Shown here piece by piece: positions 467-47,349 of a stretch of DNA of 64,000 nucleotides. Under the pieces are notes generated by a model, which saw only the letters and a program-made list of their open reading frames with translations, had not been told where the DNA came from and searched no databases. A program made the translations under genes and the position numbers. The first letter of the stretch is position 1; each line of letters begins with the position of its first letter. Source of the stretch: Psammoneis japonica (Eukaryota); contig QPGO01000005.1 in NCBI GenBank assembly GCA_008632985.1, positions 62,001-126,000 on the forward strand. The letters run 5' to 3'.

Positions 467-2123
467 GATGCCGCATGTAACAATATTCATATTTGCATGT
501 TTTTACAACAACATCGGACCTCCACGATTCAAATCAGAGATCCAAGATTCGAACCCCGTGTGCGATGCTCAGTCTCGAATCCCGCGGAAGCCGAGTCACG
601 AATGCGATATTTGTTCCTAGCTTCGCGCTTGTTTAACTTCGCGTTTCCTTTAGATGGCAGCTGCATCTGCTCATAAAAACTGCTCATAATCTTTCTAACG
701 CACTGATTATCACCTCTCAACTTTTGGTACAATAAAGTCACTGATTGATTGTTGCATCGCAATTACAGCTTTTAATCACTGAAAGTGCAGACGAATCTTA
801 AAATTCTGGCTACTTTCCCACACCGCACTGTTACTTGCGCTCTTTTCTGCTGTCATCTCGGCGAACGAAAAATGCCAAAAAAGGGTCTGTGTGCCCATCC
901 GTTCAGAACCGAGACTTATTGTGTTTGAGACCCTGTCCATGATGGACGCTCTTGTGATGTAATGTCAAATCATGTTATGAGCTTTCTAGACACTGCTTCC
1001 CTGGTGCTCTTGGCATCTTGCATCAGGTTCACCTCACTCACCCACACGTCAAGAGCCTGTGGTTGTGGGTGAAAATGCCAACTCTTTGGAGTCGTCTCCG
1101 CCGTTGACACACTGGTCTCTCGTCCTCTGTTGCAAGCGGTGAGCAGAGATCAAGCAACTGCGCCCAACACATGGAGGCAAGCCATCCTTGCTGGCTTGGT
1201 GAGTGCCTCTCAACTACAGACCAAGAAACTCTTGGTTCTTCTCCTCTCAGCAAAATCTTTGTTGTGGGACCCGGGAATGTGGAGAGTCCTCCACCAGCTG
1301 CCACAGCAACAACACAATGTTTGCAGAGCACTCTCAGACATGAGAAAATGAGCCTCATCAGCCTTGACCTTGAGCTGAGAGCATGACTCTTTTTTTTGTT
1401 CACACACACAACAGTGCTGCTGTGGCAAATGTCTTTGTGCAAAACTCTGTGCCACATGCTGCATTGTTGAATGCTGCCAAACAATTCTGTCACACTGTCA
1501 CAATGAAGTGCTGTGGTGGTGCAATGTTTCTGACACACCACCTTGTGAGAAGCACACAAGGCTGCCACAACACAACAGCCACAGCCACAAAAGAAAGAAC
1601 AGGCTTCTTCCTGGCAATGAGCTGACTGTCAGGAAAAGAGCTTTTTAAGGAATCAGAAGCAAAGCATGCCTTGAGCATGATTTGTGCTGCACCCAATGAT
1701 CTGTGCTCTTTGCTGCAGCTGGCCTGTGCTGTTGTGCAATGTTGGCAACTTGTGCACAACATGCAAGCCTTGGCACAATTGGGCCAAACGTGCACTGCAT
1801 CATGGTCTCATCATGGCTGATGACAACATCAGGAGGTTCATGAAAGGGCATTTTCCTTGCACATGAGCTGTGCAAAAATCACGCAGAACAAGAAATGGCC
1901 CTTGGCAAATGGAGCAGAGCAATTTTTGTCACAACACAAAGCACTTTTTCTCCACTTTTTGAAAGTGCATCTTTTTTTCAAAAACAAAAAAAGAGTCAAC
2001 AAAGCTCATGTTCTCATCCTCTGAAGATTCACATGGGTTGTGTCTGGGGCCAGAGAGAGAAGCTGCATCAAGGCTTGGTTGGCACAACCAAGTGCCAATT
2101 GCTGAATTGACTGTGCAGGTCAA

Positions 2124-2435
2124 TGTTGCCCAAAGGAAATCCTCTGATTTTTCCCATGCTGCTGTTTTTTGCACTTGTCCTGGTTGCTGTGGCAGCTGCA
2201 GTTTGCCTGGAAGTTCTCAACAAAGTTTGATCTTGTGATGCAACAGGTGCCCCCACTGATGCCACAACGCAATTCAAACAAACCAGATGATTGACTCCAA
2301 AGAGTGAGACAAAAGAAGGATGGTGAGATTGGTGAGGAATGAGTTCTCATTTCCAAAGTGTCACAAGATCCACCACATCAGTGGCTGAAGTGTCGTCTTT
2401 TCAACAACTCTGCACCTGGGTTGGATGCTCCAACA
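2124..2435 (-). repeat. 3' LTR of outer copia element
   Basis: Aligns to 12436-12768 (shared cacttgtcctggttgctgtggcagctgcag, catttccaaagtgtcacaagatccacca). Begins TGTTGGAGCATC on minus, right after a purine-rich AAGGAGTG (PPT-like). Left boundary approximate. Confidence 0.7.
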
Positions 2436-3799
2436 CACTCCTTGTGCTTGCAACAACATTCTGCCATTCATGTGACCTGCCCTTGTTGGCCATGTTGCAG
2501 TCTTGTGGTTCACCAGTCTGCTTGGAACTCTTGGTGTCACTGCCACTCACTTCAGGACTCTTGATGTCCTGCAACTGACAAACACACAAATGTGTGTGCT
2601 TGTTTCCATTGCTGCAATCAATCAAATCATCAAATGAACATGCAAATCCACAGACACTTCCACAAAGTGTGCTCCACATGAGCAGGATGAGATTTCTCTT
2701 TCTCACTCTCATCTTTCAAACATCCAATCTGATCCATGACCCAACTGTTGATTGTCTCTGGAGTCAAATCCAGGGATGCCATGTTGGCACAGTGCCACTT
2801 TTCTCACAGTTTGGTGGTTGCCAGGTCTGATGGCAGAAAAATGCTGCCAAGTTCCTGGCATCAAACACAATCCCTTTGGCATCCATCATGAGCCTGCATT
2901 GCTCTCATGCACTGGTGGGATCCAAATCCTGCAGTTTCATGAGGGGACCACAAATCCCACTCATGCTTGTGCCAAAGGCAGGAAAGCCAACACTTGACTT
3001 GCAGCACAAGAGGTCAATGTCAGTCTTGTTGAGGCCAAGAAAGGTTGGTCCTTTGCACAAATGAACAGCTTGTTTTGTCTCCAGGAATTGGCTCCCAGGA
3101 CTTGCCAAAATTCTTTGGTCTTGCGTGCTTTGATGGCATGCACGCTTCAGTGTTTGGGATGCAACCCCTTTGTTGCCAAGGATGAAGAACATCAGTGCAG
3201 CAGCAGTGAGATGCTCAAGCATTTCACAGCTTGTCTTCACCTCTGTCAAGGGGCTCTGCAGCTCCCTCATTTTGTGGCACCTTTGCAACCACAGGGCTCT
3301 CCTCCATGGGCCCTTGTTTGTCCAGCCCCCATGTTGGGAGCACTGGCTTGGATCCTTGATCCTCATTCTCTTCTGCAATCCTTTGACTTTGCATGGACAA
3401 ATGGCATTGCAACAAATGCAAAGACTGGGGGGGGAATGTCAATCCCCATGCTCTCATGCAATCCTTGAGTGCATTTCTCATCACACAATGTCAATCTCTC
3501 ATGTTCTTGCAGCTTTTCAAGGTCACAAAACCTCTGCCAACAGTCCCGCAGCTGCTGTTGGGTGTGGATGTCATCACCAAAATCCAACTCAAACTTGCAG
3601 CTGTCAGTCATCTTGTGTGACCACTCTGAAGAAATCACAGTTGCCAATTGCCTCCATTGATGAGCTGCATCCACAGATTGTGATTGCTGTTGAACCTTTG
3701 GCATGGTGCTCTTCCAGGTGCCAGGGATCTTTCACCCACATGCATCAGAATTCTCATCTGACATCACAAAGAACAGGACTTGTGTCTGTCACACTTGAA

Positions 3800-5440
3800 G
3801 TTGACAGCCCATGACAGCTCACAAAAACTTTTAAGACTTCTTGCCTTGTGATGGCTTTGTCATGAAGTGTCCCAATGCATCATTGGCAGGACAATGATGC
3901 ACTCACAAGTTGCCCTTCTTGATCTGATTAGCAACAAACAAACAGCCAATGTTGAGCACTTGTGACTGCTTGCCAGCACTCTTGCACCCATCAGTCTCAA
4001 GCAGGACAGTGCTCTTGTTGTCCTGGCACAGGACATTCTTGTCAATTGGACATGCCTCTGGTGCTCCATGAACAACTTTGTCTGCAGCATCACAGTCATG
4101 GCATCATTGACTCCAACAAGTTCAGCTTCTGTGTTGCTTTGGGTGTTGAGCTTCTTGTGCTTGTTTGAGATGGCCTGCACTGCTCCGCCACCCATTGTCA
4201 CAACTCCTCTGGCTGGTGTGACTCTTTGAATTGGGGTGTGCTGCAAATGATGCATCCACACACCACTTGACAACTCGGAGGTCCTTTGTGCTTGTTTGCA
4301 GCAACTTCATTTCTTGTCTCTGGTTCATGTGCATGAGACAACAGACCAGCCAGCTTTCCCGATCTTTGTTGGCAGGAGCTCTTGCATGCATGACATGGTG
4401 ACAGCAGAATGTGTGTCCACTTGGCCTCTCTCTTGTGCACAAACAGTCCCTTGGCCACCCATGTGTGGAAGGTCTGAGCCTTCTCATCTGACAATCTTGT
4501 TCCATCAGTGTCAAATGTCTTCTCTCCCCTGGCTGGTGTCACAGTGAAATCCACACTCTTTGACTTTTCTGGAAATTGGTCAATCATCTTGTAAATGCAG
4601 CCTGCCATCTTGACTTTCACTTTGCCCTTTTGGCTGAAGTCCAAAAACTTCACCATGGCTTCCATGCATCTTGTTTAGCCAGCTTGAAAATTTGTCATTT
4701 GCTTTTGGGTTCTTGTGGCTCAATGGCAGGTTGTCCACATGAAATCAAATTATGTGCTGCTTGCTGTTGACCACTCAATTGGCAATGCATGGATCACATG
4801 GGTTGAACTTAAACCCTGTCTTCTCCAAGTCATTGCAAAATTGATTGCACCACAATGGAGCCATGATTGGCATGCCGTAGATGGCTCTAATGACTTGGAT
4901 GCAAAGGACTGTCTTTTGCCTTTTTCTGGAACCACATGAGGTCTGTGCAGGTTGGGATCAATGCTCACTGGCATGTCCACTGGCACTCCTGCAATCTTCA
5001 TCATGAGCCAGTCTTCACCTTCTCCAGGCTCTAGCATCATTGTTGGCACAAATGCACCGGGAATGATGGCACTCATTTCATTGTGTTTTTCATGGGCATC
5101 AACAACTGTCATCATCATTGTCCCCTCAAGGGATGTGGCAGGGCTGACTGACTCATCTTTGTCTGGCCACTCTCTGGTTGGTTCCCCACTGCCTGTTGCA
5201 GGCCATTTGCCCTTTTGTGTGACCGTTTTGTTCTCAGCTGGGAACATCAAGGCTGTCATGGCCTTGGTTCTCTCAGTTGGAGTCTTGTCCTTGATTGATG
5301 CTGGTGCAAAGCACACTTGGTTGTGCAACTGTTTGATTTCTTTCTCTGAGGTGTCATGCCCCTTTTGGCCAAATGCTTTGAGAGGCCTCTGTGGAGCAAA
5401 TGTTGTCAGGCAAAACTTGTGCCCTCTCCACTTTTGAGTT
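3800..5440 (-). pseudogene. Copia RT/RNase H remnant (outer element)
   Basis: Frameshifted fragments 4750..5328, 4198..4665, 4122..4514 and 3860..4273 carry RT/RNase H motifs (SPATSLE, DAHEKH, KWCVDASFA, KLNTQSNTEAELVG, MTKPSQG). Confidence 0.85.
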
Positions 5441-6155
5441 GGTCATTGATCTCACACATGAAGTGCACAAGTGCCATTGCCATTTCCACTTCACATTCTA
5501 AATCATCCTTTGGATTGGGACTCATGATGGCATGTAAATGATGGCAGTGCTCAAGCTTGTGTTGCTCCTTTGCTGTCCTTCTGGCATTTGCCACTCCTGT
5601 GAAATAAACTTTCTTGTCTTCATTTCTCTGTGATGTCATCAATGTTGAAGGATGCTCCACTTCTTGTTGTGACTCTTCCTGGCACAGCATTTGCTTCTTC
5701 TTCCATTCAATTGCCTCCCCATCTTGGGTCTTCCTGGGGTTCTCTGTCTTGTTGGGGTTTTTCACTTTCACAGTGACTGTTGTCTTCTGGGTCTTCTTCG
5801 ACCTTGTGCTCCTCTTGAACTTTGTGCTGTTGATCAGGACTGGACCTTTTGTTGGCTGGCATCTCATTGGCCTCTCCTTTGCACTCATCATCTGAGTCAG
5901 GTTTGTTTTTGTGGTGTTTGTCTTCTGACTTGGCTGCACAGTGTGCATTGTTGTTTTTGTTTTCTGTGCTTTCATCATTGCTGTCTCTGTTGCTTTTGGC
6001 TTCATTGTTGTCCAGGCACTCCTGCAGTCCAGTCAGCATCACGCAGATTGTCTCTGCACTTTCCTGCAAACTTGAATTCCTTGATGACTTGTTGTTTGGC
6101 CATTTGCTTGACAGCCACAATGTGCATGTCAGCCAAGGGTGCAGAGGTGCACTTG

Positions 6156-6391
6156 AGTCAAGATGCAGTCCCACAGCTGGGTGGGATGGATGAGACCTTG
6201 GAGGTTGGTGGCAATGTGAGTGGCAACAGAGCAAACAGATGCTTGTTTCAAAGTCATTGTCTAAAAATTATGACGAAAGTCGTTGGTTCTGTTTTGAATC
6301 GATTTGTGTGATGAGTTGATTGTTTCGAAGAAATGAGCTGAGTCTGGGTTGCAGTCGTGAGATGCGACCAGAATGACGTTGAGTTGTGACT
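6156..6391 (-). repeat. 3' LTR of nested element (AGTC...GACT termini)
   Basis: Colinear ungapped match to 9218-9453. Confidence 0.92.
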
Positions 6392-6412
6392 CTCCCTCTC
6401 AACCGAGAGAGC

Positions 6413-8870
6413 TCACCAGCCCATGAGAGCCTTTCCAGCCGTGCGGAACGCATTGGTCTGCAGTCCCTTCGTGAACTGATTGGCTGGTTGCTCTGGAGTG
6501 CTGACAGATTGGATGTCGATCTCCAATTGTTCGACTTTAGTCCTAAACCAGTGGCACGGGATGCCGATGTGTTTGGCTTGCGGAGACAACTTGGGCATGC
6601 ATGCGAGCTTGAGGCATGCGGAGTTATCTTCACACACAACAGATGCAGGCAGGACATTCTGCTCAACAGGCGAGTCATCGGTGCCTTGGTTTGCAAGCTC
6701 AAAAGCCTTGGAGTGAGTCGTGACAGGGTTTTGGTGGTCAGACTTTCCAAATGCGTGGTGGTTGAGCTCCTTGAGAACTTCACGAATGGGGATGAGATCG
6801 CGCACAGCTTGAGAAAGTGCGACACATTCTGCTTCCACAGTCAACAATGCTGCAAGAGTCTGCAGCTTGGACACCCAGACAAGCGGGCAGCCAGCGCAGC
6901 AGATGAGGTGTCCAGTCCTGGACTTGACAGAAACTGGGTCTTGACCATCTTCCACACCAAACAACCCCGCGAAGTCAGAATCGACGCAACAATCAACTCG
7001 ATGATCTTGTGCAGGCTTGAGAATGAGACCTGCAGCAGCAGCAGCTTTGAGGTGTCGGAGCATCCGCTTCACTGCAGCAGTGTGGGATGCTTGGGGTGCA
7101 AACGAAAATCGAGCCACTTGATGTGCAGCACATGCAATGTCTGGCCGGCTGTTTGCTGCCAAGTGCACCAACATTCCAACAACTGAGTGACAATCGCAGG
7201 GTTCATCAAAAGGCAGGCCGTCCATGTCGGCACCAACAGCCGCAGGTGGAGCTGGAGCAGATGCTCCATTGCAATCCTGCATCTGTGCGGTGTGCAGGAC
7301 CTTGTCAATTAGACCGGGTTGAGTGAGTAGAAATCGACCCTCGAAGAGCTTTTCGATCTTGACACCGAGAAAGTTGCCGACTTCTCCTTCGTCTCTGAGT
7401 TCAAACACATGTTGATGTTCATCGTCCGAGACTCCCAACTTGCGAATTTCTTCTTCAAGAGCTTCAGCTGAAGCTCCAGCAAACACTGTGTTGTCAACGT
7501 GCACCACACACATCACACCCTCTTTGAAATACAAACAGGGGTCCACAGTTGAAGGCATCCATCCGCGCTCGATTAAACCAGCTCGTGACTTCTCGTGGAA
7601 GCCCTTGGGAGAGTGTTTTAGGCCACACAGTCCTTTCAAAAGTTTGAGGACCATGTTGAGTCCCGACCTTGGCGCAAAACCCTTCAGCGGTGTTTTGTGA
7701 ACTTCCTCGGCTACATCAGCTTGGCAGAAGGCTGTGGCATGGTCCACCTGACGTGCAGTCCATCCTTCCTTCAATGCCGCAGTGAGCATGAGTCGGATGC
7801 TGGACCATTGCATGACTGGTGCACAGGTTTCAAAACAATCCACTCCTTCTTTCTGCAAATCACCGCGGATGCAGCATTGGGCCTCACACTTGAGAGGGGT
7901 TCCATCTGGGAGTCTCTTGAGCTTTTGGGTGCCCATGTGCCTGGAAGTGCATTCATCTGCAGCTGATGCTTGACTGCTTTCCAGGCTCGACGATGCACGA
8001 GTGCATTGACCTCAATTTTCATTGCCTTGATCCATTCGTCGGCGTCCGGACCTTTCAGAGCATTGTGCAATGAAGGCACATCAGGGTCCTTGGTCTTCTC
8101 ACTAGCTGCGCGGGCTTGTGGATCATTGACATTGATGGCGCCACTGTCCAAATCTGTCTCAAGAGTTGCCAGACAAGCCAGTCGAGCCTCGTGTCTGATC
8201 GGTGTTGGCATTTCCTCGACGGTGCTGAAGCAGACTTCATCTGTGAACTTGGTGGAGTTGAGCTGTCCCTTGGTTGACCTTGAAGACCATCACAGCCCTG
8301 ATGCTCCCTCTGGATTCGTCATGGGAGGTGTCTCAGCTGGGGGAGGAGCTGTTGGTTCCGTTGGCGCTTTGGGTGGTGGAAGTTCGTTGCTGTCTTGAGG
8401 TTCAGGTGGCTGAATTGGCACAGATTCTGCAGAGTCTGTGGGAGTTTGAGTCGCAGGTGGGGCTGGTGGTGCTGGCTGAAGAGTCGCAGGTGTGACTTGA
8501 TTGGGAACGTTGTCGCAAGAAATGGATGAATCTGGCACAGCAATTGATGGAGTGGGCTCAAAATGGCCGTGAATGCGTGTCGCTCTGGCTGGTTCTTGCT
8601 CTTTACGTTGATGCTCTGGAGGGGCAAGCCACTCATCGTGCAGGTGGACCAATTGATCCTTCTCCAGAGGGATGCACATTGATTGGTTGAGATGCAAGTG
8701 CTCCCAGTGATCAGGTGGATCCGTCTCCCTCTCGATTGATGGCACGGCAGTGAAGAGATCGTCAAAGACCACATGACACTGAGGAGTGACGCTTCTCTCA
8801 GTGCACTGAACCAAACAGGAAAACCAGAGGCACCGTGGGAGCTGGTGTGTGTGCATGTAGAGCAGATTTG
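6413..8870 (-). pseudogene. Copia pol: post-integrase linker, RT and RNase H; hypermutated
   Basis: ORFs 6413..7936, 7771..8211 and 8290..8931 contain VTPQCHVVFDD, WIKAMKIEVNAL, GVDCFETCAPV, KGLCGLKHSP, DPCLY, HVDN, RPDIAC, VDSDFAG, EAECVAL, CEDN, QPANQFTKGL. Confidence 0.92.
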
Positions 8871-9217
8871 CACGCTTTTCTCCCACTGGTGGTGCCAGTG
8901 TCATTTGGTTGTTTAAACCCTGTCTCAGCACACGTCATTGCATCCTGACTCTCCCACTCATCGCAGGCACCTGGCATGGGCAGTGCCGCATGGCGGACAT
9001 CATGTGTGTGCAACGATTTGTCATTGGGAGACAATCAAGATGGCTGCAATGTTTAACTAGAGGAATTCTTGGTTGAACTCAACTTGCCTCATTTGCATGT
9101 TGAAGTTGGTTGCATTGGGCACATGTGCGCCACAGGAGGCGACTTTTTGGAAGTGCCCACACATGTGGATAGGTGGGTCGAACCCGAGGCCACGCGGGAA
9201 CGTGAAGGGTCACAACC

Positions 9218-9453
9218 AGTCGAGATGCAGTCCTGCAGCTGGGTGGGATGGACAAGACCTCGGAGGTTGGCAGCAATGTGAATTGCAACAGAGCAAACAG
9301 ACGCTTGTTTCAAAGTCGTTGTCTAAAAATTATGACGAAAGTCATTGGTTCTGTTTTGAATCAATTTGTGTGATGAGCCAACTGTTTCGAAGAAAAGAGC
9401 TGAGTCTGGGTTGCAGTCATGAGATGCGACCAGAATGACGTTGAGTTGTGACC
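9218..9453 (-). repeat. 5' LTR of nested element
   Basis: Colinear match to 6156-6391; followed on minus by a PBS-like sequence. Confidence 0.92.
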
Positions 9454-12330
9454 ACTTGCAGGGGTTCAATGTCTTCCCCGTGTGCAGGTTCACAGTGCAG
9501 TGACCACCCCTGGGCAAGTTGAAACATGGTTGCAGGCAGATGCTGTTGACACCACTCACTTCCACAGTGTTTGTCTTGTCATTCTCAACACAGGAAACAA
9601 CAAGTTCCCCAAGCTTGAGCTGAAAGTGTTTGTTGCAGTCGTCAAGGTTTCTTCATTGCACAACAGCATGTGGACTGCAAGTGTCAGAAATCCCTTCCTT
9701 TTCTGGGTGCACATTTGATGTGACTGTGTTCCAGATCATGCCTTGCTCACACACCAACTTGGGTGTCATGTTGTGCAGCATGTGATGTCATGCACAGTGG
9801 CTCTGGTTCACTCCTTGATGGCCTGGATGCTTTGTTCAACTTCAGGAACATGGTCCTTGGCATTTGCAGATGTTTGCTCTAGATTCATGCCATCCGTGAG
9901 TTCCACCAGTGTGTCCTCCTTGAACTCTGGATCACACTCAACAAAATCAATCTTAAACAGGGTTGTGTTGTGCTGTCAGAGAATCATGTCCAAGGCTTTG
10001 CAAACATGCTCGTGCTTCTTTGACTTCAGTCTCACACTTGATCCGCACTTGATCATCTTGTCAACAACATGCAGTGTCTTGCCAATGCATGCTTTCATGA
10101 CATCAATGCAGATGGTCATGTGTCTTCTCTCCACTTCTCAGAGATTTCAGGTGGAAGTGCAAAAGTGTCGTTCCTCTCATGGGAATGGTGTGCATGCTTG
10201 GTCTTGCCTTTGAGTGCATCTGTTGGTGGACCCCATGTGGCCACCATTCCATCCATGTCTTTGGGAACAATGGATGGGTTTTTCACCTGATTGGATCACA
10301 AAACTGGCTTGAAATCCCTCACACTGGGTGTTCCAGCCTCACAGCATGGCCTGAGTGCTTCCTCAGTGTTCACCACTTCTCTTTCAGTGCAGCCTTTCAC
10401 ACTCTGTTTCACAGTTGGGACAGCAGCTCCCAACACACACTCCTGTTGTGCTCATTGTTGGTCTTCTTCATGACCTTCTTGTCCTCAATTCAGCAGCATG
10501 CTCACGTGCAACTCATCTTCTTGGAGTTCTTTCCAAATGGCCAAGAAATTGCTGGCTTGGTGCAAATGCACATGGCCTGATGTTGTTGACTTTGAACACT
10601 GCAACTTGTTTGCCAGTCTTCTTGTCCAGCAGACAGAACTCATCCACCACTCTGTTGTCACATGCAACACAGCACTTGCTCTTCACATCCTTCAGACTTG
10701 GAATGTTTGCCACTGCACTCCACAATCCAAGCTTCACATCACCCCATCCTGGCACAGGAGTGCAGTCTTTGTCCACTCCTGCACTGGTGAACAGATCAAT
10801 CTTGGTCCTTGCCAGTCACACACTGTGCACCAGTTTCCAACTTGCTGCCATGCAAAGGGCAGAGCTGTTGCCAAGGATGAATTCATGTGACTCAATGGCA
10901 ACATTGGCTTTGCTCAAACTTGTCTCCAGCCTTTCTTCAGCCCATTCATCAACTTGAAACCCACACCACACAATGTTTCTCTTGTTGCTGCTTGCTGATG
11001 AGCAGTCTTTGTCTCTTTGTGCATGACTGGGTCTCCTGGCATCCAGTTTCCTGCCAGTGTTCTTGTGCCAGTCCTTCTGATGGATCTCATCCTTGTGCTT
11101 GAAGTCTGAGGACTTGTGGCCTGCTTCACCACAAAAGTGGCACACTGCAGCACCTTGGTTGCCACTCTGGGCATGACTCTGGTCTTGTGGGTTCTTGGAC
11201 TTGTCGCCAGTCCAATCTCCATTCTTGGTGCTTGGACATTCATCATTCTGCTTGTGCCACCTCTTGCATGGATCATTGTCCTCCTCAGGATGGTTCGGCA
11301 ACACATCCATTGCCTTCTTGAGGGTCTTTGGACATGAGTCCCTTCCCAGCAGGCTGCAGTCTCTCACAAGGCTCTTCTTGAGGTTCTTGCAGAAATGGTC
11401 ATCACTGTTCTCCACAAACAGGTGTGCAGTCCATGTCTTGAGTGCAGCATCTTTTGGCATGGTTTGATCCACTGGGGCAGCACAGTCCTTGTGCTCCTTG
11501 GTGTTCTTGACAGATCCATCTGGCATCTTGCTGCCAAGACCTTTGCTTGTGGCATCCCCTTGATTCTTAAATCTTGGTGGGTGGTCATTCAGAGTGACTT
11601 GTCCTCCAACTGTTTCACTTCCTGTGTGTGCTTCAGGGACTTGGCAAGTGTGTGGAACAGGTGTTGTCCTCTCATGGAGTCAAGTGCAAGTGACTGGATC
11701 AGCTTCAACAGTTTGATTGGGTCATCTCTGATCCTCTGGCAATTGGGAAATCAGCTCCTTGCACTCTTTGCTTCATCAGCTTGGCACACAGCAATCATCT
11801 GGGATTGCTGCGGGTGCAGTGCTCTTGTTCTCTTCAAGCTTCTTCACTTTGTTGTTGCAGTCATGCAACTTGATCTTGCACTCATGTTCAAGATGTCTTT
11901 CTTCTCCAGGATCGTGCACTCATGTTCAAGATGTCTTTCTTCTCCAGCTCTCTCATTGCCTGTTCCTTGCAGTTTGCATCACCTGATGCTGGCACTGTTG
12001 TCATTGCCATCGCCAATGCACAGGTCTCTCACCAGCAAAAAATTCATGTGTGTCATGTCTTCTGGAGACCTTGCCAGATGCATGCCTTTGCCACACTCCT
12101 TTTGCACAAGGTTGATGGTCTTTCTTTCCTTGGCATCTTTGAACATCACATTGTGCAAGAAGAGTTGCTGTTCATCGATGATGGGCGAAACTTCTTTTCT
12201 GGCTTGAAGCTCTTCCTCGGGTCAGTCTTCTTGTTCTCAAAGCAGCAAGACTTGTGGCCTCTGCCACACCTGCCTTGGTTGTGTCCTCAGCCTTTGGCAC
12301 TCGTTCTGCCTCCTCCTCTGCCACTCACAA
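9454..12330 (-). pseudogene. Copia gag-protease-integrase remnant (outer element)
   Basis: 10816..11526 has a gag-like region plus CCHC knuckle remnant (CHFCGEAGHKSSDF) and protease remnant; WGPPTDALKGKT and integrase remnants at 9480-10290. Confidence 0.8.
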
Positions 12331-12435
12331 TGCATGTTTCCTGTCTCGGATGGTCAAATGGAGGAGGCTGGTGCCGCGCACACCAAACACAGTGCTTGTG
12401 ACTATTTGGGAGTGAGCGTTAAAGCAACAAGTCAA

Positions 12436-12768
12436 TGTCACCAAAAGAGAATCCTCCAAGGTTTCCTGTGCCACTCATCACACTTGTCCTGGTTGCTGTG
12501 GCAGCTGCAGCTTGCCTGGAAGTTTTCAACAAACTTCAATCTCATGACACAGCGGGCACACGTTGTGTGTGACACCTCAGCGCAACTCCAACAAACCAGA
12601 TGATTCACTCCAAAGAGTGGGACAAAAGAAGGTTGGTGAGATTGGTGATGAGTGTGTTTTCATTTCCAAAGTGTCACAAGATCCACCATCTCAGCAGCTG
12701 AAACACCCCTTTTTCAACAACTCTGCACCCAGGCTCCTCACATTTCCCACTCGTTTGATGCTCCAACA
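12436..12768 (-). repeat. 5' LTR of outer copia element
   Basis: Direct repeat of 2124-2435, ending gatgctccaaca on plus; lies upstream of gag on minus. Confidence 0.7.
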
Positions 12769-13146
12769 CCAACAACCCCAGATTGACCACACAATGCGAG
12801 ACCAAAGATGAAGATCTTCACATCTCTTGCACTGTAGGTTTGGCCACAAGAAGCTGGGGTTGCATGCCTGTCGTCTCGCTCGTTGCGTCATGTTCACTGT
12901 ACATCATCTTGCCCAATCTGGGCGGAGTGGTGTCCGCACGCCTGCTGCCTGGTTGCTGGTGTCACGACCAGAAGGGATTGACACGACGCACGCACGCACG
13001 CGACCAGCGATCACGATCGATTCGTTTGATTTGCACGACCACGACTATTTAGCTAACAAACACCACTCAAGACGGAGCATGTCAGCAATGAGCTGCATGT
13101 CACACCTCAATCCTCGTAAAACGTTGTTTCACAATAGCCAGCTATC

Positions 13147-14199
13147 ATGAAACTGATACTTTTTCCATTCTTATGCCTCTTTTTGTGCTCCGTCCTCGGA
13201 AGTGATGTATCTGATGATTCCACCGAGTTTGATGGCTTGTCGTGTGGGCAGTGTGTGGCGTGCTGTGCGGAGCTAGCGGCCAGGGCTCCACAAGAGGCAA
13301 GCGAACATAAAGCGAATGTGACAAAACTTGGCACTTCACACGATCAAATTAACGACGAAATTTTGGAGAAGAAGATTAAGGCTCTCCAAGAGAGCTTGAT
13401 GTTTAGTGAAGCGGCTCGAATCCGATTGAAACATCAGCTCCTCGCTCAAAAACCCAAGCCATTAGCAGACATTTCACAACAAAATGATATTGCGCATATT
13501 TCAGTTAATAAAAACAGAATAGAGGAATTGGAGCGAGAAAATGCGTCGCTGAGAGAGTCTCTTGCGGGGCTGAAGACAGCATACAACGAAAAAATGAGTC
13601 AATGCCGACATCGAATGCTGAAAGCAAGCCACAACAAGAATCATCGACAAATGAAGCTATTTGTTACACAGCAGAAATTTTCAGAGCTTCGCGAGCATGC
13701 AGCTGCGACACGTGTCAATGTGACTTTGATTCTGGAAGATGCCTCCCGCTTTGCGAAAGACGCTTGGGAACGAACTGTTTCCTTTGGAGACTGGGCACAC
13801 TTCAATGCAGTCTGGATTTGGGATAAATTTATTGATTCATTCCAACCTGGATGTATTGATCTAGTCAATCAAGTCAGATGGTTGTATCGCATTTGCTTTA
13901 CTGTGCCAGCGACAACCTTAAAGCGGGGAACAGATCATTTCTTGAATAACTCGTTGCAGCATTCGTTACCCGAGCAACTGAGGAGATACACGACTGAACC
14001 CAACACTGAACATGGAAATGTCGAGACTGTTCATTCAAGACGATTAATAGTGCTTCTATGGTTGGAAGTTCTGGTCGTCTTGACTGTGTTCTCCTGTTGG
14101 TGGAACCGGTGCAGCGGCAAACGTAAACACAAGGTCATAGAAGAGAATGATGACGCACCGGTATGCGTCAGTGAATATCAGAATGTAGGAAGGTTCTAG
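13147..14199 (+). CDS. Hypothetical protein: signal peptide, coiled coil, C-terminal TM helix
   Basis: 350-aa ATG ORF with normal dinucleotide composition; hydrophobic N-terminus, heptad-like middle, LIVLLWLEVLVVLTVF followed by a basic tail. Confidence 0.75.
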   Translation: MKLILFPFLCLFLCSVLGSDVSDDSTEFDGLSCGQCVACCAELAARAPQEASEHKANVTKLGTSHDQINDEILEKKIKALQESLMFSEAARIRLKHQLLAQKPKPLADISQQNDIAHISVNKNRIEELERENASLRESLAGLKTAYNEKMSQCRHRMLKASHNKNHRQMKLFVTQQKFSELREHAAATRVNVTLILEDASRFAKDAWERTVSFGDWAHFNAVWIWDKFIDSFQPGCIDLVNQVRWLYRICFTVPATTLKRGTDHFLNNSLQHSLPEQLRRYTTEPNTEHGNVETVHSRRLIVLLWLEVLVVLTVFSCWWNRCSGKRKHKVIEENDDAPVCVSEYQNVGRF

Positions 14200-14402
14200 T
14201 ATCAAGCCAATTATACAGTAGTGGCAACAATTGTTCTAAGTGTCATGCTGCAATGCTTCAACGGCAACAGTTCGATCAGACTTGTTACGGATCATTCCTG
14301 TATTGCCGCATGATTGTCTTTCTGGCATTATTCCTATATTCGTGAGAGTTCTCTCGGCCATAAAAACAGTGAGTGACAATGGAACGGCGTAATGCAGAAT
14401 CT

Positions 14403-14945
14403 TCATTCCGTGGTAGTTGGTCTTCTTGGCAGACTGTCACGACGCAAGCTTTTCTCTTTTCTTCGCAATCTCTCAAGCTCCGAGAACCTCTTACGTACTG
14501 CTTGATCTTGCGGTGAACTTTGCGTTCTTCTTTCATTACGCGCCATTAAGGAAGAACGTTCATCTTGGGGTTTTGACTTCGACATCGTCGGATTCTTTCT
14601 TGCTCCAAGCAACTGCATTCTCCTTGTCGCTTCGGCCAACATATCCGGTGAAAGTTCTTGATCGCCGAACATTGTCTCGTTTTCTTTTCTGTCAGTTTCT
14701 GACGCCGTTGAGTCCATGTATTGATGCACGAAAGATTTTGAGCTCCAATTATGAGACTTGCTTGCCTCTTCTCGACATTCCTTTCCTTTACTTTCCCAAG
14801 CAGTTTTGGTCGCGTTGTGGCGCGATAGAGCTCGGGCACGTTGCACGTTGGGCTGGTGCTTTTTCTCGCGCACGAAACGTGTTGTCCATGACCTGACGTC
14901 ACCTGAGTTGGTCGCGTTTTTGGCCTGGCTCGCCGTCTTTACCAT
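14403..14945 (-). CDS. Hypothetical hydrophilic protein (possible)
   Basis: Charged ORF from ATG 14945 in normal-composition DNA; no recognisable domain. Confidence 0.35.
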   Translation of the reverse strand: MVKTASQAKNATNSGDVRSWTTRFVREKKHQPNVQRARALSRHNATKTAWESKGKECREEASKSHNWSSKSFVHQYMDSTASETDRKENETMFGDQELSPDMLAEATRRMQLLGARKNPTMSKSKPQDERSSLMARNERRTQSSPQDQAVRKRFSELERLRRKEKSLRRDSLPRRPTTTE

Positions 14946-15029
14946 GAACATCAACAGCAAGCAGTTACCTCCGTTCTTGCTAACTCATCTTACGATGTGC
15001 AATCTTTGCTGCCTTCATTGCTATCTCCG

Positions 15030-16095
15030 CTTACAAGCCTTCCTCTTCATTCCTTCTCTCGTCGCTTCCCAAGCTCCCGTCTTTCTTCGGACACCTGCGC
15101 TGTTGCTGCTCTTCGCAAGCTTCGCCTCCCCGGCCGTCCTCCCTCCGTCCCTTGTCAACACTCCCTGTCCCTGTGGCCATGCAATCCTTGATGCTTATGG
15201 TGACCATGCCTTTTCTTGCTGCCATGCCCACAAGTCCAAGCTTTCTGATGGTCTCCGCGATGCTGTTTTCATCCTAGCCCAAACCCTGGGACCCCTTGCA
15301 GAGTTCTGTCGCTCCCCTGATGACGCTCATCTCAAGCCTGCCAACCTGCTCCCCACCCGCCTGCTTCTCCATCCCGCTGATGTCGGCATTTCAATTCCCC
15401 CTCCCGCCTCCCTTTCCGCTCCTTCGCGTCATCATTACATTGCAGTGGACGTCACCGTCCCTCAAGCTCCTTCTCGCCCTCCTCCAGGTCTGCCTGCTCC
15501 CTCTTCTCCTGTTTTAACTGAGGCACACCACTCGAGCGCGAGATTGAAGTTCCTTGGCCCCTCTGCTTCCTCTGCTGATGGATCCCTTGTTGTTTCTTTG
15601 CTTGACAATGATGGCATCTCCCTGCTCCCCTTCACCGTCGATCACCTTGGTGGTCTCGGCTGCTTTGCTCACCGCTTGCTCTTTGGCCCTGCGTCTTCTT
15701 CCATCTGCTCTCAGCCCAAGCCGCCCTGGTCCTCTTCCTCTGACTTTCATCACTCTGTTGCCTCCCACTCCGCCTTCCTCTGTGCTTTGTTGTCTCCATC
15801 TGCAATCCTTCCATCCGCTGACTTCGCATGGCGTCGCCTGTCCGCCGATCGCTTTGGGAGCGCCTGCCGCACAGCCTCCCCATCCCAGTGGGCCACCCAA
15901 ACCCTTGGCTACAACGTCGTTCTTCACCTTTCTACGCACATCCTCCAATTCACTTCCTCCCTCCCTGCTCCCTCCTCACCTGTGCCTTCCTCTAAACGCC
16001 CTTTGTCCTGTGTCCTTCGGCCCTTCTACTCTGCCATCACTGCAGCCACCTCCGTGCCTCCCTCTGCTGTTCCCTTCCGCTCTACATGGGCTCTC
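15030..16095 (+). mobile_element. 5'-truncated non-LTR retrotransposon with restriction-like endonuclease (CRE-like), C-terminal region
   Basis: CPCG..LDAYGDHAFSC zinc finger, then HPAD (RPAD-like), AVDVTV and LLPFTVDHLGGLG, the RLE motif series of CRE/R2-type LINEs; very C/T-rich sense strand. Ends approximate. Confidence 0.8.
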
Positions 16096-16099
16096 TTAA

Positions 16100-19000
16100 T
16101 TTTCTGTTTTAAGTGCAAAACGCGAGAGCTGCTTTTTTGAATGAGCAGTCTCACTCCCTGTAGAAAGCCCTCTTCACACCAAAGTTTAGATGGAAATGAG
16201 CTGTTGGGATTTCATGGTTTGATGACTGGTGTGTGCTCAGTCTCGCTGATTCCCTGAACTTGCCGTGTGGACTGCAAACACACCCCTGATGCTGCTGTTG
16301 CAGCTGTTGCCATGTCAACCAGGTGCAGAAGCCAAAAAGTGAGCACAAGACCTGCAACTCATCAAAAGTTGCAAATGCAAGTTCACCTCATCATCAACAA
16401 TCATGAGTGCGCCATTTGCTGCTGTGTTGTCTGTTTGTCCTGCAAGAAAAACCACCAGCAAATCGCACCCTGCAATGTTCCAAAGTGAGCAACCAATGGC
16501 AAGTCCGCCCATCGAGCATCCAACCCCAACTTGACCTGATGGAGGAGGGTGCCTCCAAGCTCAAACAGCTGGTCATGGTCAGCCCAGACATTGCAGACAT
16601 GCCTCAGCTTCATTTTGTTTCTGGGGAAATTTGCCAGAGTGGCCCTCACAAGCCCAAAATCCATTCTTGCCACCCCAGCACATGCATGGTGCAGCTTCTG
16701 GCACTTTTCCTGTGAAGAGCACAAAGATGTTCAAAAGCCATCAATGGTGAAAATGGCACTCATTTCAAAAACAGCCCACTGAATCCATGCTGCCATGACC
16801 TCTCCGCCCCCCCCCCCCCCCCCCCCCCCATCCCATGGCTGGCATGCATGTCTTGTGGCATTGTGGCATGATGGCTCAGTGTGTGGAGCGGTGGCTCTGT
16901 GGTGGCACTGTTCTGATGGTTTGCCCTTGTCTTGCTCACACAGTGGCATGTTTAATCTTGCACTCCAGAGCAAGGTGGTGGCACTGGATTCAATGCTGCT
17001 GTGCTGGCTCTTTGTGAGTGACTTGTGGGTTGACTGTGTGTGGGGCGGGGAGACCTCAGCTGGAGTGGTGCAAATCATTTGGGGATGCAGCAGGAGCTGC
17101 TTCATGGGGATTGTTTGACTCACCACATGCCTTGACTTGGAGCTCAAAACAAAAAACACCTGGAACAACTTTGAGTGACAGTCACAGGCCATCATTGTGT
17201 GCACTTGATTTGTGTTGTTTGGTTCTTTTGTGTGTTCTCCAGTCCAGCTGAGTGGGAACAATCTTGAGTCTTGTCCTTGTTGTCAGGCATGCTGGAGAAC
17301 CACTTCATGTCAATTGGGTGCACAAGATGACCATGGCTCAGCTTGGAACTTGACAAAAACACCTGGAGTGACTTTTGCATCACAGCTGTGAACCATCATC
17401 ATTGTTGTGCACATGATTCATTTTGTTGTGTGCCCTTCCAGTTGAGCATGAACAATCTCATGTCTCATGTGCTGGAGCTGCTTTGCATTGTTTGGGCACA
17501 CAGTGACTTGACTTGAAAATCAACAAAAAAAACACTTGGTGGACTGACTTTTGTGTGGACTTTTTTGTGCATTTGATTGCTGCACCGCAATGTTCTGGGT
17601 TCACTGGGCAACATGTCCTTTTGGCCCAGCATGACTTGCTTTGCACACTCTTGGAAACAAATGCCAGAGAAACTGTTGTGTTGCAAGCTCTTGGAAGCAA
17701 ATGCCAGAAAAACTGTTGTGTGGCAATTTTGCCCTGTTGCTTTGCTTGGAACTTGACAACAATTGGAGCAGCTTTCATGTGTTGATTTGGACTGTTTTTG
17801 CGTGTTGGTTTTGTTTGTTGGTCATTTGGAGTTGGGGTGTGTCTTGCCAAACAAGCTGTGGATCACAATGGCAGCACATGTGTGGCCAGCCAGCAGGAGT
17901 CTTCAACAACTTTGAGGCTGTGAAACCCTTCTGGGCCAGTCAAGCTGTCATCAAAAAGCATGACCACAATGTTCAGTGGTCAACTTGCATTGAAAATTGG
18001 ACCTGGAAAACAGAGTCATGGTGCGCGCCATGGGTGCACCACAAGACTCCTTGCAAATTGCCCCCCCCTCCCCCCACCACCACTGGATTGAGCAGAAGTG
18101 CAGTTTTTGCATTGACAAGGATCTCACTTTGGGGCAACACTGAGAGCAAGAGCATGAACAGGCACTTTGCAAGGACTGGCCCAAGTGTGACAAGCAAACA
18201 TGGCCATTTCAACCAGTCTCCTGCCACTTCAAAGTTGGGGTCTTTCACCTTCACCCCATGTGCTTTGCTTCCAAGTGGTCATCATGCAAAACAAGCAAGA
18301 AAAACCCATCCTTGTAAAGAAAGAAAAGCAACAAGAAAGATGAGAGCAGCACTGCAGGCACTTGTTAACATGCAGAAAAAATGCCTTGTTGACAAGGGTC
18401 TTTCCAAATCCCTGCCATGGGATGAGCAGTGGGTGGCAAGCAGACCAGATGTTTGATGTTTGCAGAGAATGAGGAAAGAGATTTGCTGGGTCCAAAGGGG
18501 GTGCACCAAATGCCACAGAGCAGGTGCCAACATGGCACATCTGCACAATGTGCTGGCATCACAAATTGCAGAGACCAGAGAAAAGCCAAGATCAGCATGC
18601 CCCTGTGTCAACCAGTGGAATGACACCATGGGGGCAGAGCTGGCCCTTGGCGGGAGGGTGCTGAGCTTTGATGAGTCACTTGCTGTGCTGACAAGCAAGA
18701 GATTGGTTGGTGCTTTTGGACAGGAGAGCAAGAAACTCAAGGGCAGCACAACATTGAAAGGTGTGTGGGGGTGGCGGCCTGCCATTAAAAAAAATTGTCA
18801 CACCTCTCTTTCCTCCATCCAAGACTCATGTGACCCCTTGCCTGCTGTGACAAGAGAAAAGAATCCACAGAGCAGATCACTCAAAAGCCATTTGGCAGCA
18901 AAGCATGCTGGGCATGTGCTCCCCTGTGGGAGCTCTCCAACATTTGTTGTGCCTGACATGCAGGGGAGACAACCACAACCTCAAGGATTTGTGCAAACAA

Positions 19001-20480
19001 GATTTTGCTCATGCTGAGCTCATGTGCTGTGACCAAACAATTTGAGCAACAAGTGGCGAAGCTTCACCAGCTCCTTGCTTTTTGGCAAAATGTCATGCCG
19101 CGCAAGATCCGTGTGACCCCAAATTCCATGTTGGCAAATTTTTGAAGTTCTCTTGCATGCACAAGTGGCTGGTGCACACACACTGGATTTTGCAGAGTTT
19201 TTGAGTGGGATGGCTTTGTGTCACACTTCATTGACCAACTCTCACACAAAAAATCAAGCTGACAAAGTGCTGCACATTCCCTCATGGTGAGAAATCTCCT
19301 TGAAGAGCTGCTGTGCATTGCTCCTGGTTGCCATGAAAACAAAGTGTGTGGCACAACCTGCTTTGTGGTGCTCCTCATTCTTTGCCTGCCATGAGTCTTT
19401 GTTGAAGGTTGTGCTCTGGGAGCAGCCGTGGCTGAGAGCGCAACCCCAAACATTCAAAATCAATGGATCCAGCATGAACTGCTTTTTTTGCCATTTTCTC
19501 CTGGAGAGATGCTGCAGTGCACATGCTGCATGCTTAAAAGCAGCTTGCTGTTTCTGAACAGAAAAACAGTCTGGCAAGTGTGCTCTCCATCTAACAACAT
19601 GTGCTGGCGCCAGCTTTGGTGAAGCCATGCTCTGAACAAACCTCAGACAGATGCACAAACTTGGCATGTGCACATGTTTTTCCTCTTTTCTCTCCCATGT
19701 GACAAGTGCAAAATGTGTCTCTTTTTGTCAGGGAGTGTCTCTTCATCAGATCATGGACACCATGGACAAGTTGCTTGCACTTCAATTGTCCACATGATGA
19801 AAGCGGGCACCACTTTGCATGCACATTTTTTCTCCTTTGTCAGAGAGGAGTGTCTCTTTGACAGATTGTCAACACCATGGGCAAGTTGTTGACACTCCAA
19901 TGACATGATGAAATTGGGCACAATCACTCAACCCCATTTTTAACTCAACTTTTCTCTGCTTTGACTGCAAAAAAGTCGGAGGCATCAACTCCTCCTCTCT
20001 GGGACGGCTTGCTGCTGTGCACAAGCTCTGCAGTGGCATGGACATGGTTGCATGTCATGCTCCTTGCCTTTGCATGGGTGTCACACCTGGTCAAAACAGC
20101 CGTCTTTGCTGCAGGATTCTCTTGTTTGCACATCAAATTAGAAACAGATTGAGTGGCCCATTGGCCCATTTTGATGATCGACAAGAGATGGGCCATGTGA
20201 CAGCGATGAGTGTTTCTCTCCACTGCATGTCTGTGGAGTTGTTGACACACTGCTGATGCCATCAAAAAGCGTGGCTGCGCCCTCTGCAGCTTTTCCTGTT
20301 GCCTTTTCTTTGTCATCAGACAAGAGGGAGAAGTGGTCTTCACTTGATGCGTCTTTCTTGGACAAGGACATGTTTGCATTCTCTGTCGCTGATTTTTTTC
20401 ACTTTCTGGAGCGCGTTGCGATGCCAACCTGCGGCGGCGGCGGGAGCACCGTGCTACGGCACATGCTGTCAGCTGTCAGA
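16100..20480. repeat. TpA/CpG-depleted repeat block 2 (unclassified elements); poly-C run 16807-16829
   Basis: Same composition as block 1; no domain confidently recognised. Confidence 0.8.
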
Positions 20481-32831: not shown

Positions 32832-33089
32832 GGTCTATCGTTCTTCTCTGTGCTGTTTACTCGCTAATTTCTGGGAAGATCCAACACGAGCGACATCGGC
32901 AGATTTTCTCACGAGGATGAGAACCCTGAATCCCATGGATACAGTACTGAAAACACGTAGGAATCTACGCCTGAATTCTTCTTCAAAATGTCCGATCCAC
33001 GTGCAGAATATGTTGCGTTTCGGCGTGGACCTCTTGTGGCGCGAAAAGTGGAGAAACAAGACGCGGGCAAAGTTGCAGCTGAATGACAG

Positions 33090-46100: not shown

Positions 46101-47349
46101 GCCATTGGCAAGTGACAAACAAAGCTGCATTGATGCCAACATGTGGTTGCATTCAGTGGCAACACCACTGTTGTGCACATTGTTGGCATGGAACAAGGAA
46201 GAGGGCTCTTCAACAGATGTGCACACTGACCATGACCACCATCTTTGAACTGACACCTTGTGCACCAAAAATGGCCTCTTTCTGTTGGCTGCCTTTGTTT
46301 CTTTTCTGACCACTTCCTTGCTGTTTTGATGGTGCTCATGGCAGTCTAACTCAAGCACAGAGCTTTCTTTGCCAACAACCACACTCTGCTCTTGGCCCTC
46401 ATGCTCTGTGCCATTTCCAACATGGCCAGCTCATGGAGTCAGTGTGTGTCCCTCAACTGTGCTTTGTTTCCAGTGCAGACTGCACTGGTGAGTTCCAAAA
46501 TCACTTGGTCATGATTGTGCTGGTGAAAACATCCTCAAGGGAAACTTGCATCAGCATGGTCAATGATGCATGGAAGCCTTCTTGATTGCCATGGGTGTTG
46601 CCATTTTTTTTTCTTGCCTCCAAGTTGAGTGACAGTGCAAACAGCACAGAGCTTGTTGGTTTGCTCTTTTTGTTCTTGTGCATTGCCTTTGATTCCTTCA
46701 TGTCCCCCAGTGGCAGGATGAGGTTTGCCAAAGTGCAGATGTGCCAACAATGTCAGCCCCTGCTGCCAAATGATGTTGGGCATCAACACATCAGCAGTCT
46801 TTTGCATTGCAGTGGCAGGTTGCACCATTGCCAGTGACTTTCCTGTGAATTCCTCCAAGCCACTGTGTTGTCGGCATCTGGACAATTGTGTGTCTTTTGC
46901 ACAATCAAGGAGTTTGGTCCAGTCATCTTGGAAATTTTCGTGATGATGCGACAAATGTTTTCTGTTCTCATTTCTGGCATTGTCTTTGGACACCAGATGT
47001 CCATGCTGGCAGCCAAGCAAGCTGGATGTGACATTGGCGTTTTTTGCAATTTTCTTTCTTAAGTCAATTTGGCACAAGTGCTTGGCACAAAAGAGCAGCC
47101 AGCAAGTTGTCATGTTTCTCCAGAGTTCCAGGGTTGTGCAACACAAGGATGGCACCCAGCAACAGGAAATGCCACTGCCCATGATGAAAAAGTCATTGCA
47201 GCAACAGCAAAGAAGCACCATGTTTTGAGCAAATGAAGAGTGGCAATTGTGTGTGCAAATGCTCTGGAGAGTGCTTTTTAGGAAACCATGTTTCTGAGTT
47301 TGTCTTTTTGCAGGTGGCAGCATGAAGCAGTGCCAGCAGATGGGGTGCA

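Follow-up and report, generated by a model that had tools for sequence, protein, structure and literature searches.

Among the described systems, the closest to the one reported here is that of the chlorarachniophyte Bigelowiella natans, in which integrated nucleocytoplasmic large DNA virus (NCLDV) and virophage DNA undergoes hypermutation at TpA (Mettrop et al., bioRxiv 10.64898/2026.01.13.699255, April 2026). In mutation-accumulation lines, 231 of 302 new substitutions fell in integrated giant-virus and virophage regions, and 230 of these 231 were A→G or T→C changes, all at TpA, which arose in only a subset of the lines, with a rate of about 6e-7 per site per generation (about 1,000 times the background). 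The B. natans genome contains 124 clusters that are poor in TpA and rich in CpA and TpG, and its 324 TpA-poor coding sequences are enriched in reverse transcriptase (RT), endonuclease-RT, and DDE domains. The DNA adenine deaminase proposed is an ADAT2-like protein, and ADAR was noted in the Discussion to favor a 5' U. Apart from this preprint, literature searches returned nothing on TA→TG/CA hypermutation. A term search of two diatom transposon papers yielded no mention of repeat-induced point mutation (RIP), dinucleotides, or hypermutation, and a recurring Rhizoctonia paper was rejected as a precedent, as it deals with ordinary RIP indices. Here, we analyze a 64,000-nt stretch of the genome of the diatom Psammoneis japonica (GCA_008632985.1, contig QPGO01000005.1, positions 62,001 to 126,000 of the forward strand; hereafter, the window), in which the RT/RNase H reading frame of a copia retrotransposon holds a single tyrosine. 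The pattern probably reflects a transposon-directed hypermutation that erases TpA after integration and is accompanied by CpG decay.

The RT/RNase H frame (6413-8011, minus strand) is 532 amino acids long from stop to stop and belongs to an inner copia element of 3.3 kb. It matches RVT_2 (PF07727) over residues 41 to 253 (Pfam; E value, 5.2e-24), and 338 homologs were retrieved at an E value of ≤0.001, with identities of up to 58%. The best 60 of these 338 were aligned and the best 120 listed, and a precomputed PF07727 match is available for 117 of the 120. Tyrosine accounts for 1 of the 532 residues (0.19%), compared with 3.3% in the aligned columns of the 60 homologs (binomial P value for at most one Tyr at this frequency, 3.4e-7), while Cys (4.7%) and His (4.1%) exceed their frequencies in the shared columns of the homologs (1.7% and 2.2%, respectively). 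No Tyr-poor sequence was present among the 120 listed homologs, in which the minimum was 2.26%. In 18 columns, Tyr is present in at least 60% of the 60 homologs; 4 of these face a gap in the query, and the other 14 are occupied by Cys (7), His (6), or Val (1). The sole Tyr of the frame (codon at 7530, in the context CLYFKEG) stands where all 60 homologs have Phe, and its codon was produced by a TTT→TAT transversion; it is a new T-A-T, still awaiting erasure. A previous, sequence-only reading of this DNA had counted one Tyr in the frame and had listed a series of altered copia motifs. The count was confirmed, and every motif was recovered in place: HVDN, at the YVDD site (7490-7501), LCGLK (7616-7630), DCFETCAP (7817-7840), DIACAA (7124-7141), RHLK (7046-7057), RTGH (6908-6919), EAECVA (6818-6835), CEDN (6623-6634), and CHW (6548-6556).

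The direction of change was analyzed in conserved columns, defined as those in which at least 80% of the homologs agree. For each, any codon for the conserved residue was combined with the flanking bases of the query, and the observed codon was compared with the products of transitions in a named dinucleotide, giving 16 models. The frame differs in 63 of 269 conserved columns, and TA→TG/CA explains 26 of these differences and CG→TG/CA explains 8, while the remaining 14 control dinucleotides explain between 0 and 11 each. The 29 differences that fit neither the TA nor the CG model are ordinary divergence, together with a misaligned N terminus near a frameshift. Upstream homology continues in another frame (open reading frame [ORF] 7774-8289; tblastn matches of the 120 homologs at 7915-8868), which places the frameshift near 7930-7990. 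The loss of Tyr is accompanied by Thr→Ala, Ile/Met→Val, Lys→Glu, and Arg→Gly changes after a codon ending in T and by Leu→Ser/Pro, Val→Ala, and Ile→Met changes. The tblastn search of the window with the 120 homologs yielded matches in the inner element only and did not reach a second copia family, whose RT fragment (4753-5442, minus strand) contains no Tyr in 230 amino acids. In this fragment too, TA→TG/CA is the best of the 16 models, explaining 9 of 38 departures.

These results sustain the earlier proposal that Tyr codons had been altered by a polarized TA→TG/CA change acting on both strands, as they include both the 7 Cys and the 6 His outcomes and the best-fitting model in two families. 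The listed homologs retain their tyrosines rather than carrying Cys or His at these positions, and changes in other dinucleotide contexts are far from equally frequent. The recurrence in further copia relics was likewise confirmed, at KWCVD (4254-4268, minus strand), KHVGCD (50838-50855, plus strand), and CEHW (51146-51157, plus strand), and so was the loss of the enzyme without new stop codons: TAA and TAG are nearly gone, and long stop-free ORFs are present. The earlier reading was therefore right as to direction and recurrence. Its scope requires correction, since the process is not aimed at RT or at tyrosine and instead consists of a loss of TpA and CpG throughout entire blocks of the window.

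To delimit these blocks, dinucleotide odds ratios (observed/expected [o/e]) were surveyed along the window together with counts in 500-nt bins. TpA and CpG are lost from blocks at 1000-12740, 16200-20450, 33010-35400, 40150-41280, and 43490-52330, the last of which holds the KHVGCD and CEHW relics, and from a sixth block at 58940-64000, which reaches the end of the window and in which CpG is only about half lost. Together, the blocks cover about half of the window (33,416 nt) and hold 99 TA, compared with about 1,270 expected at genic density; normal DNA (27,975 nt) holds 1,061. Within the blocks, o/e values are 0.0 to 0.15 for TA, 0.0 to 0.1 for CG in the oldest parts, and 1.6 to 2.3 for TG and CA, compared with about 0.5 to 0.7 for TA and about 0.9 to 1.2 for CG in genic DNA. 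The 500-nt bins contain 0 to 6 TA and mostly 0 to 3 CG in the blocks, against about 10 to 38 TA and 19 to 39 CG in genic DNA. The borders are sharp, with TA counts switching within about 100 to 300 nt, and are common to nested and unrelated relics. A Pfam scan of the 60 long ORFs of the window placed all host-gene matches (aldo-keto reductase, kinase, KTI12, carboxyl transferase, helicase, and others) outside the blocks and none inside them, apart from the RT ORF, which was searched separately. The blocks are transposon nests. Because TAA and TAG are nearly gone, long ORFs are found in every frame of the blocks, with 24 of at least 100 amino acids in 7 kb.

The first block contains both copia elements, one nested in the other. 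The inner element (6156-9452, minus strand) is bounded by a 5' long terminal repeat (LTR) at 9218-9452 and a 3' LTR at 6156-6390, which are 91.5% identical over 235 nt (self-BLAST), and by a CACTTG direct repeat at 6150-6155 and 9453-9458, its target-site duplication. The RVT_2 RT, the direct LTRs, and the target-site duplication are those of a Ty1/copia element; the element has neither an intact YxDD site nor a full gag-protease-integrase-RT-RNase H complement. It is a dead, shortened Ty1/copia LTR retrotransposon. It lies within an older outer element (2116-12729), to which the RT fragment of the second family belongs and whose LTRs (2116-2416 and 12428-12729; self-BLAST and alignment) are 77.7% alike.

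The few TA dinucleotides that survive in the blocks reveal a neighbor preference. Of the 99 survivors, 86 are TAA or TAG. Compared with the expectation at genic density, 3 RTAY remain of about 375 (R, purine; Y, pyrimidine), 30 RTAR and YTAY of about 649, and 66 YTAR of about 244. A model with additive hazards for T-A-N on the two strands (TAT, 2.59; TAC, 2.32; TAG, 0.96; TAA, 0.39) fits the ten tetranucleotide classes (deviance, 5.14; 6 degrees of freedom; P value, 0.53), while a single hazard is rejected (likelihood ratio, 132.7; P value, 1e-28). With 78 intact metagenome copia loci (317 kb) as a second baseline, the corresponding hazards were 2.99, 2.28, 0.86, and 0.66 (P value, 0.59). The model predicts that about 79% of YTAY would give TG and about 79% of RTAR would give CA, and the compositional excess gives about 82% and 88%, respectively. 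CpG survival (0.17 to 0.45) follows no such neighbor rule. Since Tyr codons are T-A-Y by definition, tyrosine is the residue that vanishes.

We consider it probable that these observations reflect a hypermutation directed to chromosomal transposon DNA, in which A:T→G:C changes at TpA on either strand would convert TA to TG or CA until almost none is left. Adenine deamination is the most likely chemistry: adenine in DNA would be enzymatically deaminated to hypoxanthine and read as G. The enzyme would recognize 5'-T-A-N-3', with a preference for a pyrimidine at the 3' position (T ~ C >> G > A), and a candidate is a deaminase of the ADAT2/TadA type, as proposed for B. natans; no deaminase family was matched by Pfam among the 60 long ORFs of the 64-kb window. 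TAY codons would become Cys codons by A→G on the coding strand and His codons by A→G on the other strand. TAA and TAG would not be created and would be lost more slowly, and elements would die by missense changes as stop-free ORFs fill all six frames. A second, slower process would strip CpG from the same blocks by CG→TG/CA. Of this reading, the direction of change, the dinucleotide that is hit, the neighbor preference, the involvement of both strands, the timing after duplication, the confinement to transposon blocks, and the recurrence in independent data are documented by the sequences, and the enzyme, the lesion, the way in which blocks are selected, and the link between CpG loss and methylation are inferences.

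The same neighbor rule would also arise from a thymine lesion, in which the T of R-T-A would be oxidized to 5-hydroxymethyluracil (5hmU) or 5-formyluracil by a TET/JBP-type dioxygenase and mispair with G, giving T→C. In strand-symmetric data, A→G in T-A-Y and T→C in R-T-A are indistinguishable. In dinoflagellates, 5hmU favors TpA, and 5-formyluracil causes A:T→G:C changes; however, 5hmU itself pairs well with A. The window offers no evidence of such an enzyme or base, and the only experimental precedent proposes adenine deamination, itself unproven. We regard a thymine lesion as unlikely, although it is the most probable of the rivals considered.

Next, the timing of TA loss was assessed from repeat pairs, which were identified by self-BLAST and aligned before their differences were sorted into TG↔CA doubles, CG↔TG/CA, and TA↔TG/CA. 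Two tandem units of about 830 nt (59718-60545 and 60549-61378) are 84.9% alike and differ by 21 TG↔CA doubles, 15 CG↔TG/CA, and 3 TA↔TG/CA, in addition to 30 other transitions, 30 transversions, and 6 indel columns; 16 CG and 1 TA are common to both. The 16 shared CG and the 15 that decayed in one copy correspond to a per-copy CG decay of about 0.32, from which only about 1.75 doubles are expected. About 19 of the doubles are therefore former TA sites that were resolved to opposite products (TG and CA) in the two copies, showing that TA loss followed the duplication and proceeded independently in each copy. In this pair, TA loss has advanced about 7 times as far as CG loss, being nearly complete where CpG loss is about one-third done. 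Per nucleotide, TA change is at least about 40 times background (about 3.6% divergence per copy); this is a minimum, as saturation of TA loss may have occurred early. The outer LTR pair shows 12 TG↔CA doubles and has no TA left. The inner LTR pair shows 4 doubles (about 1.5 expected from CG alone) and 7 CG singles, with 2 TA in both copies. In the outer pair, 11 of the 12 doubles have TG in the first LTR and CA in the second (two-sided P value, 0.006, before correction for three pairs), which hints at single events running along one strand. A general strand coherence of TG versus CA is not claimed, as the dispersion exceeds the genic value only slightly (variance at 300 nt, 1.55 versus 1.34).

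The two losses share territory, yet they are separable. In the nested inner element, o/e values are 0.10 for TA and 0.57 for CG, compared with 0.02 to 0.04 and 0.06 to 0.12, respectively, in the older outer parts, so that the CG→TG/CA footprint is graded with age. At block edges, CpG persists for about 80 to 250 nt into the TA-free zone, and the window contains no block in which CpG is lost and TpA kept. Past the outer LTR, a single-copy flank of 317 nt (12730-13046) holds only 2 TA (o/e, 0.12; P value at genic density, 5e-4), while its CpG content is normal (22 CG; o/e, 0.95). It seems that the TA process spills about 300 nt past the element or that an unrecognized relic lies there. CpG loss, of which only the footprint is seen here, would most simply be decay of methylated cytosine. 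The window thus supplies an ordering, with TA loss first and CpG loss later.

The repeat pairs and the flank bear directly on editing before integration, in which element RNA would be edited by an ADAR- or ADAT-like A-to-I activity, or the cDNA edited, and the edited copies inserted and amplified. Such editing is expected to mark one strand and to leave both LTRs identical. Instead, the two strands were hit about equally (7 Cys and 6 His) and the survival data suit the two-strand model; LTR and tandem copies start out identical, yet the pairs here are separated by TG↔CA doubles; the single-copy flank, which lies outside any LTR, is also TA-poor; and block borders are common across nested and unrelated relics. 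What speaks for editing is that the family of the inner element is multi-copy, that its near-fixed private differences are mostly of CG type, and that its own LTR pair is weak on TA loss after insertion. On balance, an origin before integration is very improbable, and hypermutation of integrated DNA remains the preferred explanation.

To determine how far the signature extends beyond this assembly, relatives of the second-family RT (4753-5442) were collected with HMMER. Among the best 150 of 944 relatives (median Tyr content, 3.0%), 11 contain less than 1% Tyr, and alignment showed that they carry Cys or His where intact relatives have Tyr. Ten of the 11 were traced to ENA, Logan, and JGI records. 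The 11 are only 30 to 45% identical to the window and therefore represent other families. Among 79 metagenome loci that encode relatives, a single one, a JGI metagenome contig of 2,055 nt (L072), displays the full signature, with o/e values of 0.17 for TA, 0.48 for CG, 1.58 for TG, and 1.73 for CA, no RTAY among 22 surviving TA, and Tyr→His/Cys replacements in its RT. In the other 78 loci, TA o/e ranges from 0.42 to 1.09. Several of these 78 loci have lost CpG without losing TpA (L066, L019, and L069, with TA and CG o/e values of 0.63 and 0.15, 0.60 and 0.22, and 0.58 and 0.26, respectively). TA loss is thus no general companion of age or methylation, and these loci are useful negative controls for the TA process.

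The reality of the depleted sequence was examined in a short-read-type run, X1, by building contigs from exact 31-letter words. X1 holds 76% of sampled words of 5500-15499; it derives from the same sample as the assembly, so consensus error is excludable, and it does not represent an independent strain. Its contigs cover unique depleted DNA at 823-2199, 2180-3370, and 16843-20000 with 0 to 1 differences, and word depth there is 61 to 71, compared with 66.8 in normal DNA. A sequencing or assembly artifact would require that a modified base in heterochromatin be misread (A as G and C as T) and that the consensus take up the error of one strand. Long-read basecallers do err at methylated motifs, and TG or CA is the outcome that conflicting strand-specific miscalls would give. 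However, reads with strand-conflicting modified bases would break the X1 contigs at every site, and exact-word contigs instead run through 1.2 to 3.2 kb of unique depleted DNA at undiminished depth, which argues that the signature is no assembly artifact. Furthermore, clean transitions keep a 500-amino-acid frame aligned, and the same signature recurs in the JGI metagenome contig and in the ENA and Logan proteins. We consequently give the artifact almost no credence. Equally negligible is selection on composition, whereby elements would avoid UpA and CpG to escape host nucleases or sensors: joint suppression of CpG and UpA is well known in viruses, but here invariant catalytic and structural residues were destroyed (YVDD→HVDN and 13 conserved Tyr), relatives keep normal Tyr and TA contents, and copies diverged after duplication at exactly these sites.

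X1 also provides a view of variation within the sample. All four differences between the window and X1 that lie in depleted DNA at single-copy depth are of the TA or CG type (TA/CA at 1292, CG/TG at 3704, TA/TG at 12404, and CG/CA at 17802), and these could be alleles or mutations still arising within the culture. The family of the inner element reaches a summed word depth of 3,000 to 5,000, compared with about 61 to 67 for single-copy DNA, a sum that is not a copy count. Its variants in X1 are mainly transitions (A>G, 122; C>T, 132; G>A, 123; T>C, 156), with 9 to 29 of each transversion. Among the 40 best supported of 663 differences between the window and the other copies, 21 are CG→TG/CA changes private to the copy in the window.

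Several observations weigh against hypermutation after integration as the full explanation. Only 4 of these 40 differences read TA→TG/CA, and 2 of the 4 are halves of TG↔CA doubles; part of the TA loss of the inner family could therefore predate its amplification. The inner LTR pair, taken alone, is weak evidence for TA loss after insertion, and the strand coherence of the outer LTR pair is absent from the other two repeat pairs. The rule of a 3' pyrimidine is a preference and not a law, since His has replaced Tyr at two of the five Tyr codons that follow a pyrimidine, and the survival baseline consists of genes or foreign copia loci rather than true ancestors. Two multi-copy sequences, at 471-822 (TA o/e, 0.61) and 14950-16332 (TA o/e, 0.30), are not clearly depleted, and being repeated is thus not sufficient for targeting. 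The CpG component is without a counterpart in the main text of the B. natans preprint (10.64898/2026.01.13.699255). Finally, no mutation was seen happening, and everything described here rests on end states.

The first of these two sequences (471-822; 352 nt) is absent from an X1 contig that joins position 470 to 823 and has a depth of about 940 to 1,020, compared with about 61 to 67 for single-copy DNA. It contains 18 TA, and its CG o/e is 1.27. This is probably a small insertion, young or polymorphic, that TA erasure has passed over or not yet reached. The second (14950-16332; about 1.4 kb) is multi-copy, with a summed depth of 2,000 to 4,250, is strongly C/T-rich, has a CG o/e of 0.60, and gave no Pfam match. 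Of its 18 TA, 17 follow a pyrimidine and 11 are TAY, unlike the usual survivors. Mutation of one strand only was considered for this sequence and rejected, as the pattern is confounded by the C/T-rich strand; the sequence is either not targeted or compositionally odd.

Long frames without a Pfam family were also encountered. One is a stop-free frame of 1,077 amino acids (59919-63149, minus strand) that runs across the tandem repeats; it and a 461-amino-acid ORF (14755-16137) are interpreted as stop-free by-products. Outside the blocks, two minus-strand ORFs (32283-32834 and 31176-32279) match the carboxyl transferase domain continuously (profile positions 2 to 69 and 65 to 365) and are separated by a lone in-frame stop at 32280-32282, where a short intron is likely. 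An uninterrupted gene of 1,018 amino acids (55745-58798, minus strand) combines a DEAD/Helicase_C core, CCCH zinc fingers, and a BMT5-like rRNA methyltransferase domain, an architecture common to diatom and plant relatives. The best match is 73% identical, and relatives include a Nitzschia transcriptome (52%), Seminavis robusta (43%), Chaetoceros tenuissimus (41%), Thalassiosira sp. (39%), Cyclotella atomus and Nitzschia inconspicua (38% each), and land plants (30 to 34%); named relatives down to 38% identity are diatoms only.

If the hypermutation reading is correct, A:T→G:C hypermutation of invading DNA is not peculiar to one chlorarachniophyte but also molds the repetitive DNA of diatoms, which are ecologically of great importance. 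The neighbor rule (TAT ~ TAC >> TAG > TAA) is one that any candidate enzyme must reproduce, and it can be checked against the 231 B. natans mutations. A simple screen follows from the signature, namely, a Tyr-free RT with excess Cys and His, a TA o/e below 0.2, and TG and CA o/e values above 1.5, and such a screen already finds cases in public metagenomes. Repeat libraries, gene callers, and LTR-divergence dating would be misled by long false ORFs, of which the 1,077-amino-acid frame is an example and a trap for gene callers, as well as by inflated LTR divergence and unrecognizable relics. More tentatively, diatoms, and perhaps protists of the SAR group (stramenopiles, alveolates, and Rhizaria) widely, may possess a defense that is RIP-like and chemically opposite, in which a DNA adenine editor reading T-A-Y would be directed to transposon chromatin and erase TpA there completely. 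T-A-Y is the word that TadA/ADAT2-type enzymes read in the tRNA anticodon loop. Such a defense would kill elements through their Tyr codons and eliminate most stop codons, and the resulting kilobases, stop-free in every frame, could serve as a source of new ORFs. The window would then be the first evidence of retrotransposons as the main long-term target and would show that the system is not restricted to chlorarachniophytes, having either been conserved across supergroups or arisen twice.

Compared with other known systems, the process in P. japonica resembles ascomycete RIP in being a transition hypermutation of mobile or repeated chromosomal DNA in a dinucleotide context, with sharp compositional blocks, copies that are hit independently, and elements killed by point changes. 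RIP, however, acts by C→T at CpA or CpG, raises TpA, enriches AT, and makes stop codons; here, TpA is destroyed, CA and TG are raised, GC goes slightly up, and stops vanish. Decay of 5-methylcytosine would leave a similar age-graded CG→TG/CA footprint, and CpG loss of this type is seen in copia loci from other organisms whose TpA is retained. Such decay would account for the CpG half only; TA loss is faster, has its own neighbor rule, and reaches a flank with intact CpG. APOBEC3 and ADAR editing likewise present a deaminase-type hypermutation of retroelements with a neighbor preference; they act on RNA or cDNA before integration and mark one strand, whereas both strands were changed here after integration.

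The closest parallel is with B. natans (10.64898/2026.01.13.699255). In both, A:T→G:C changes at TpA give TpG or CpA on either strand, the changes are limited to foreign or mobile DNA while the remaining genome (here, the remainder of the 64-kb window) is ordinary, and the footprint consists of TpA-poor, CpA- and TpG-rich stretches with RT and, in B. natans, DDE domains. The differences lie first in the host, which is a diatom (a stramenopile) rather than a chlorarachniophyte (a rhizarian). B. natans has 45% GC, 7.8 introns per gene, and a mean exon of 159 bp (Table 1, PMC12730881), unlike the window, in which genes lie in exons of 0.7 to 3 kb; this gene structure and the diatom relatives of the helicase gene rule out B. 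natans as the source of the window. The targets here are LTR retrotransposons with TA o/e values of 0.0 to 0.1, compared with a rho of 0.45 for the B. natans NCLDV region, and the B. natans rate was measured, whereas the rate here is bounded only from end states, at no less than about 40-fold over background. A term search of the main text of the preprint found no use of "trinucleotide," "CpG," "retrotransposon," or "diatom." Relative to that text, the retrotransposon targets, the refined T-A-Y motif, and the accompanying CpG decay are new. The P. japonica case is of the same kind as B. natans hypermutation, extended to diatom LTR retrotransposons at saturation.

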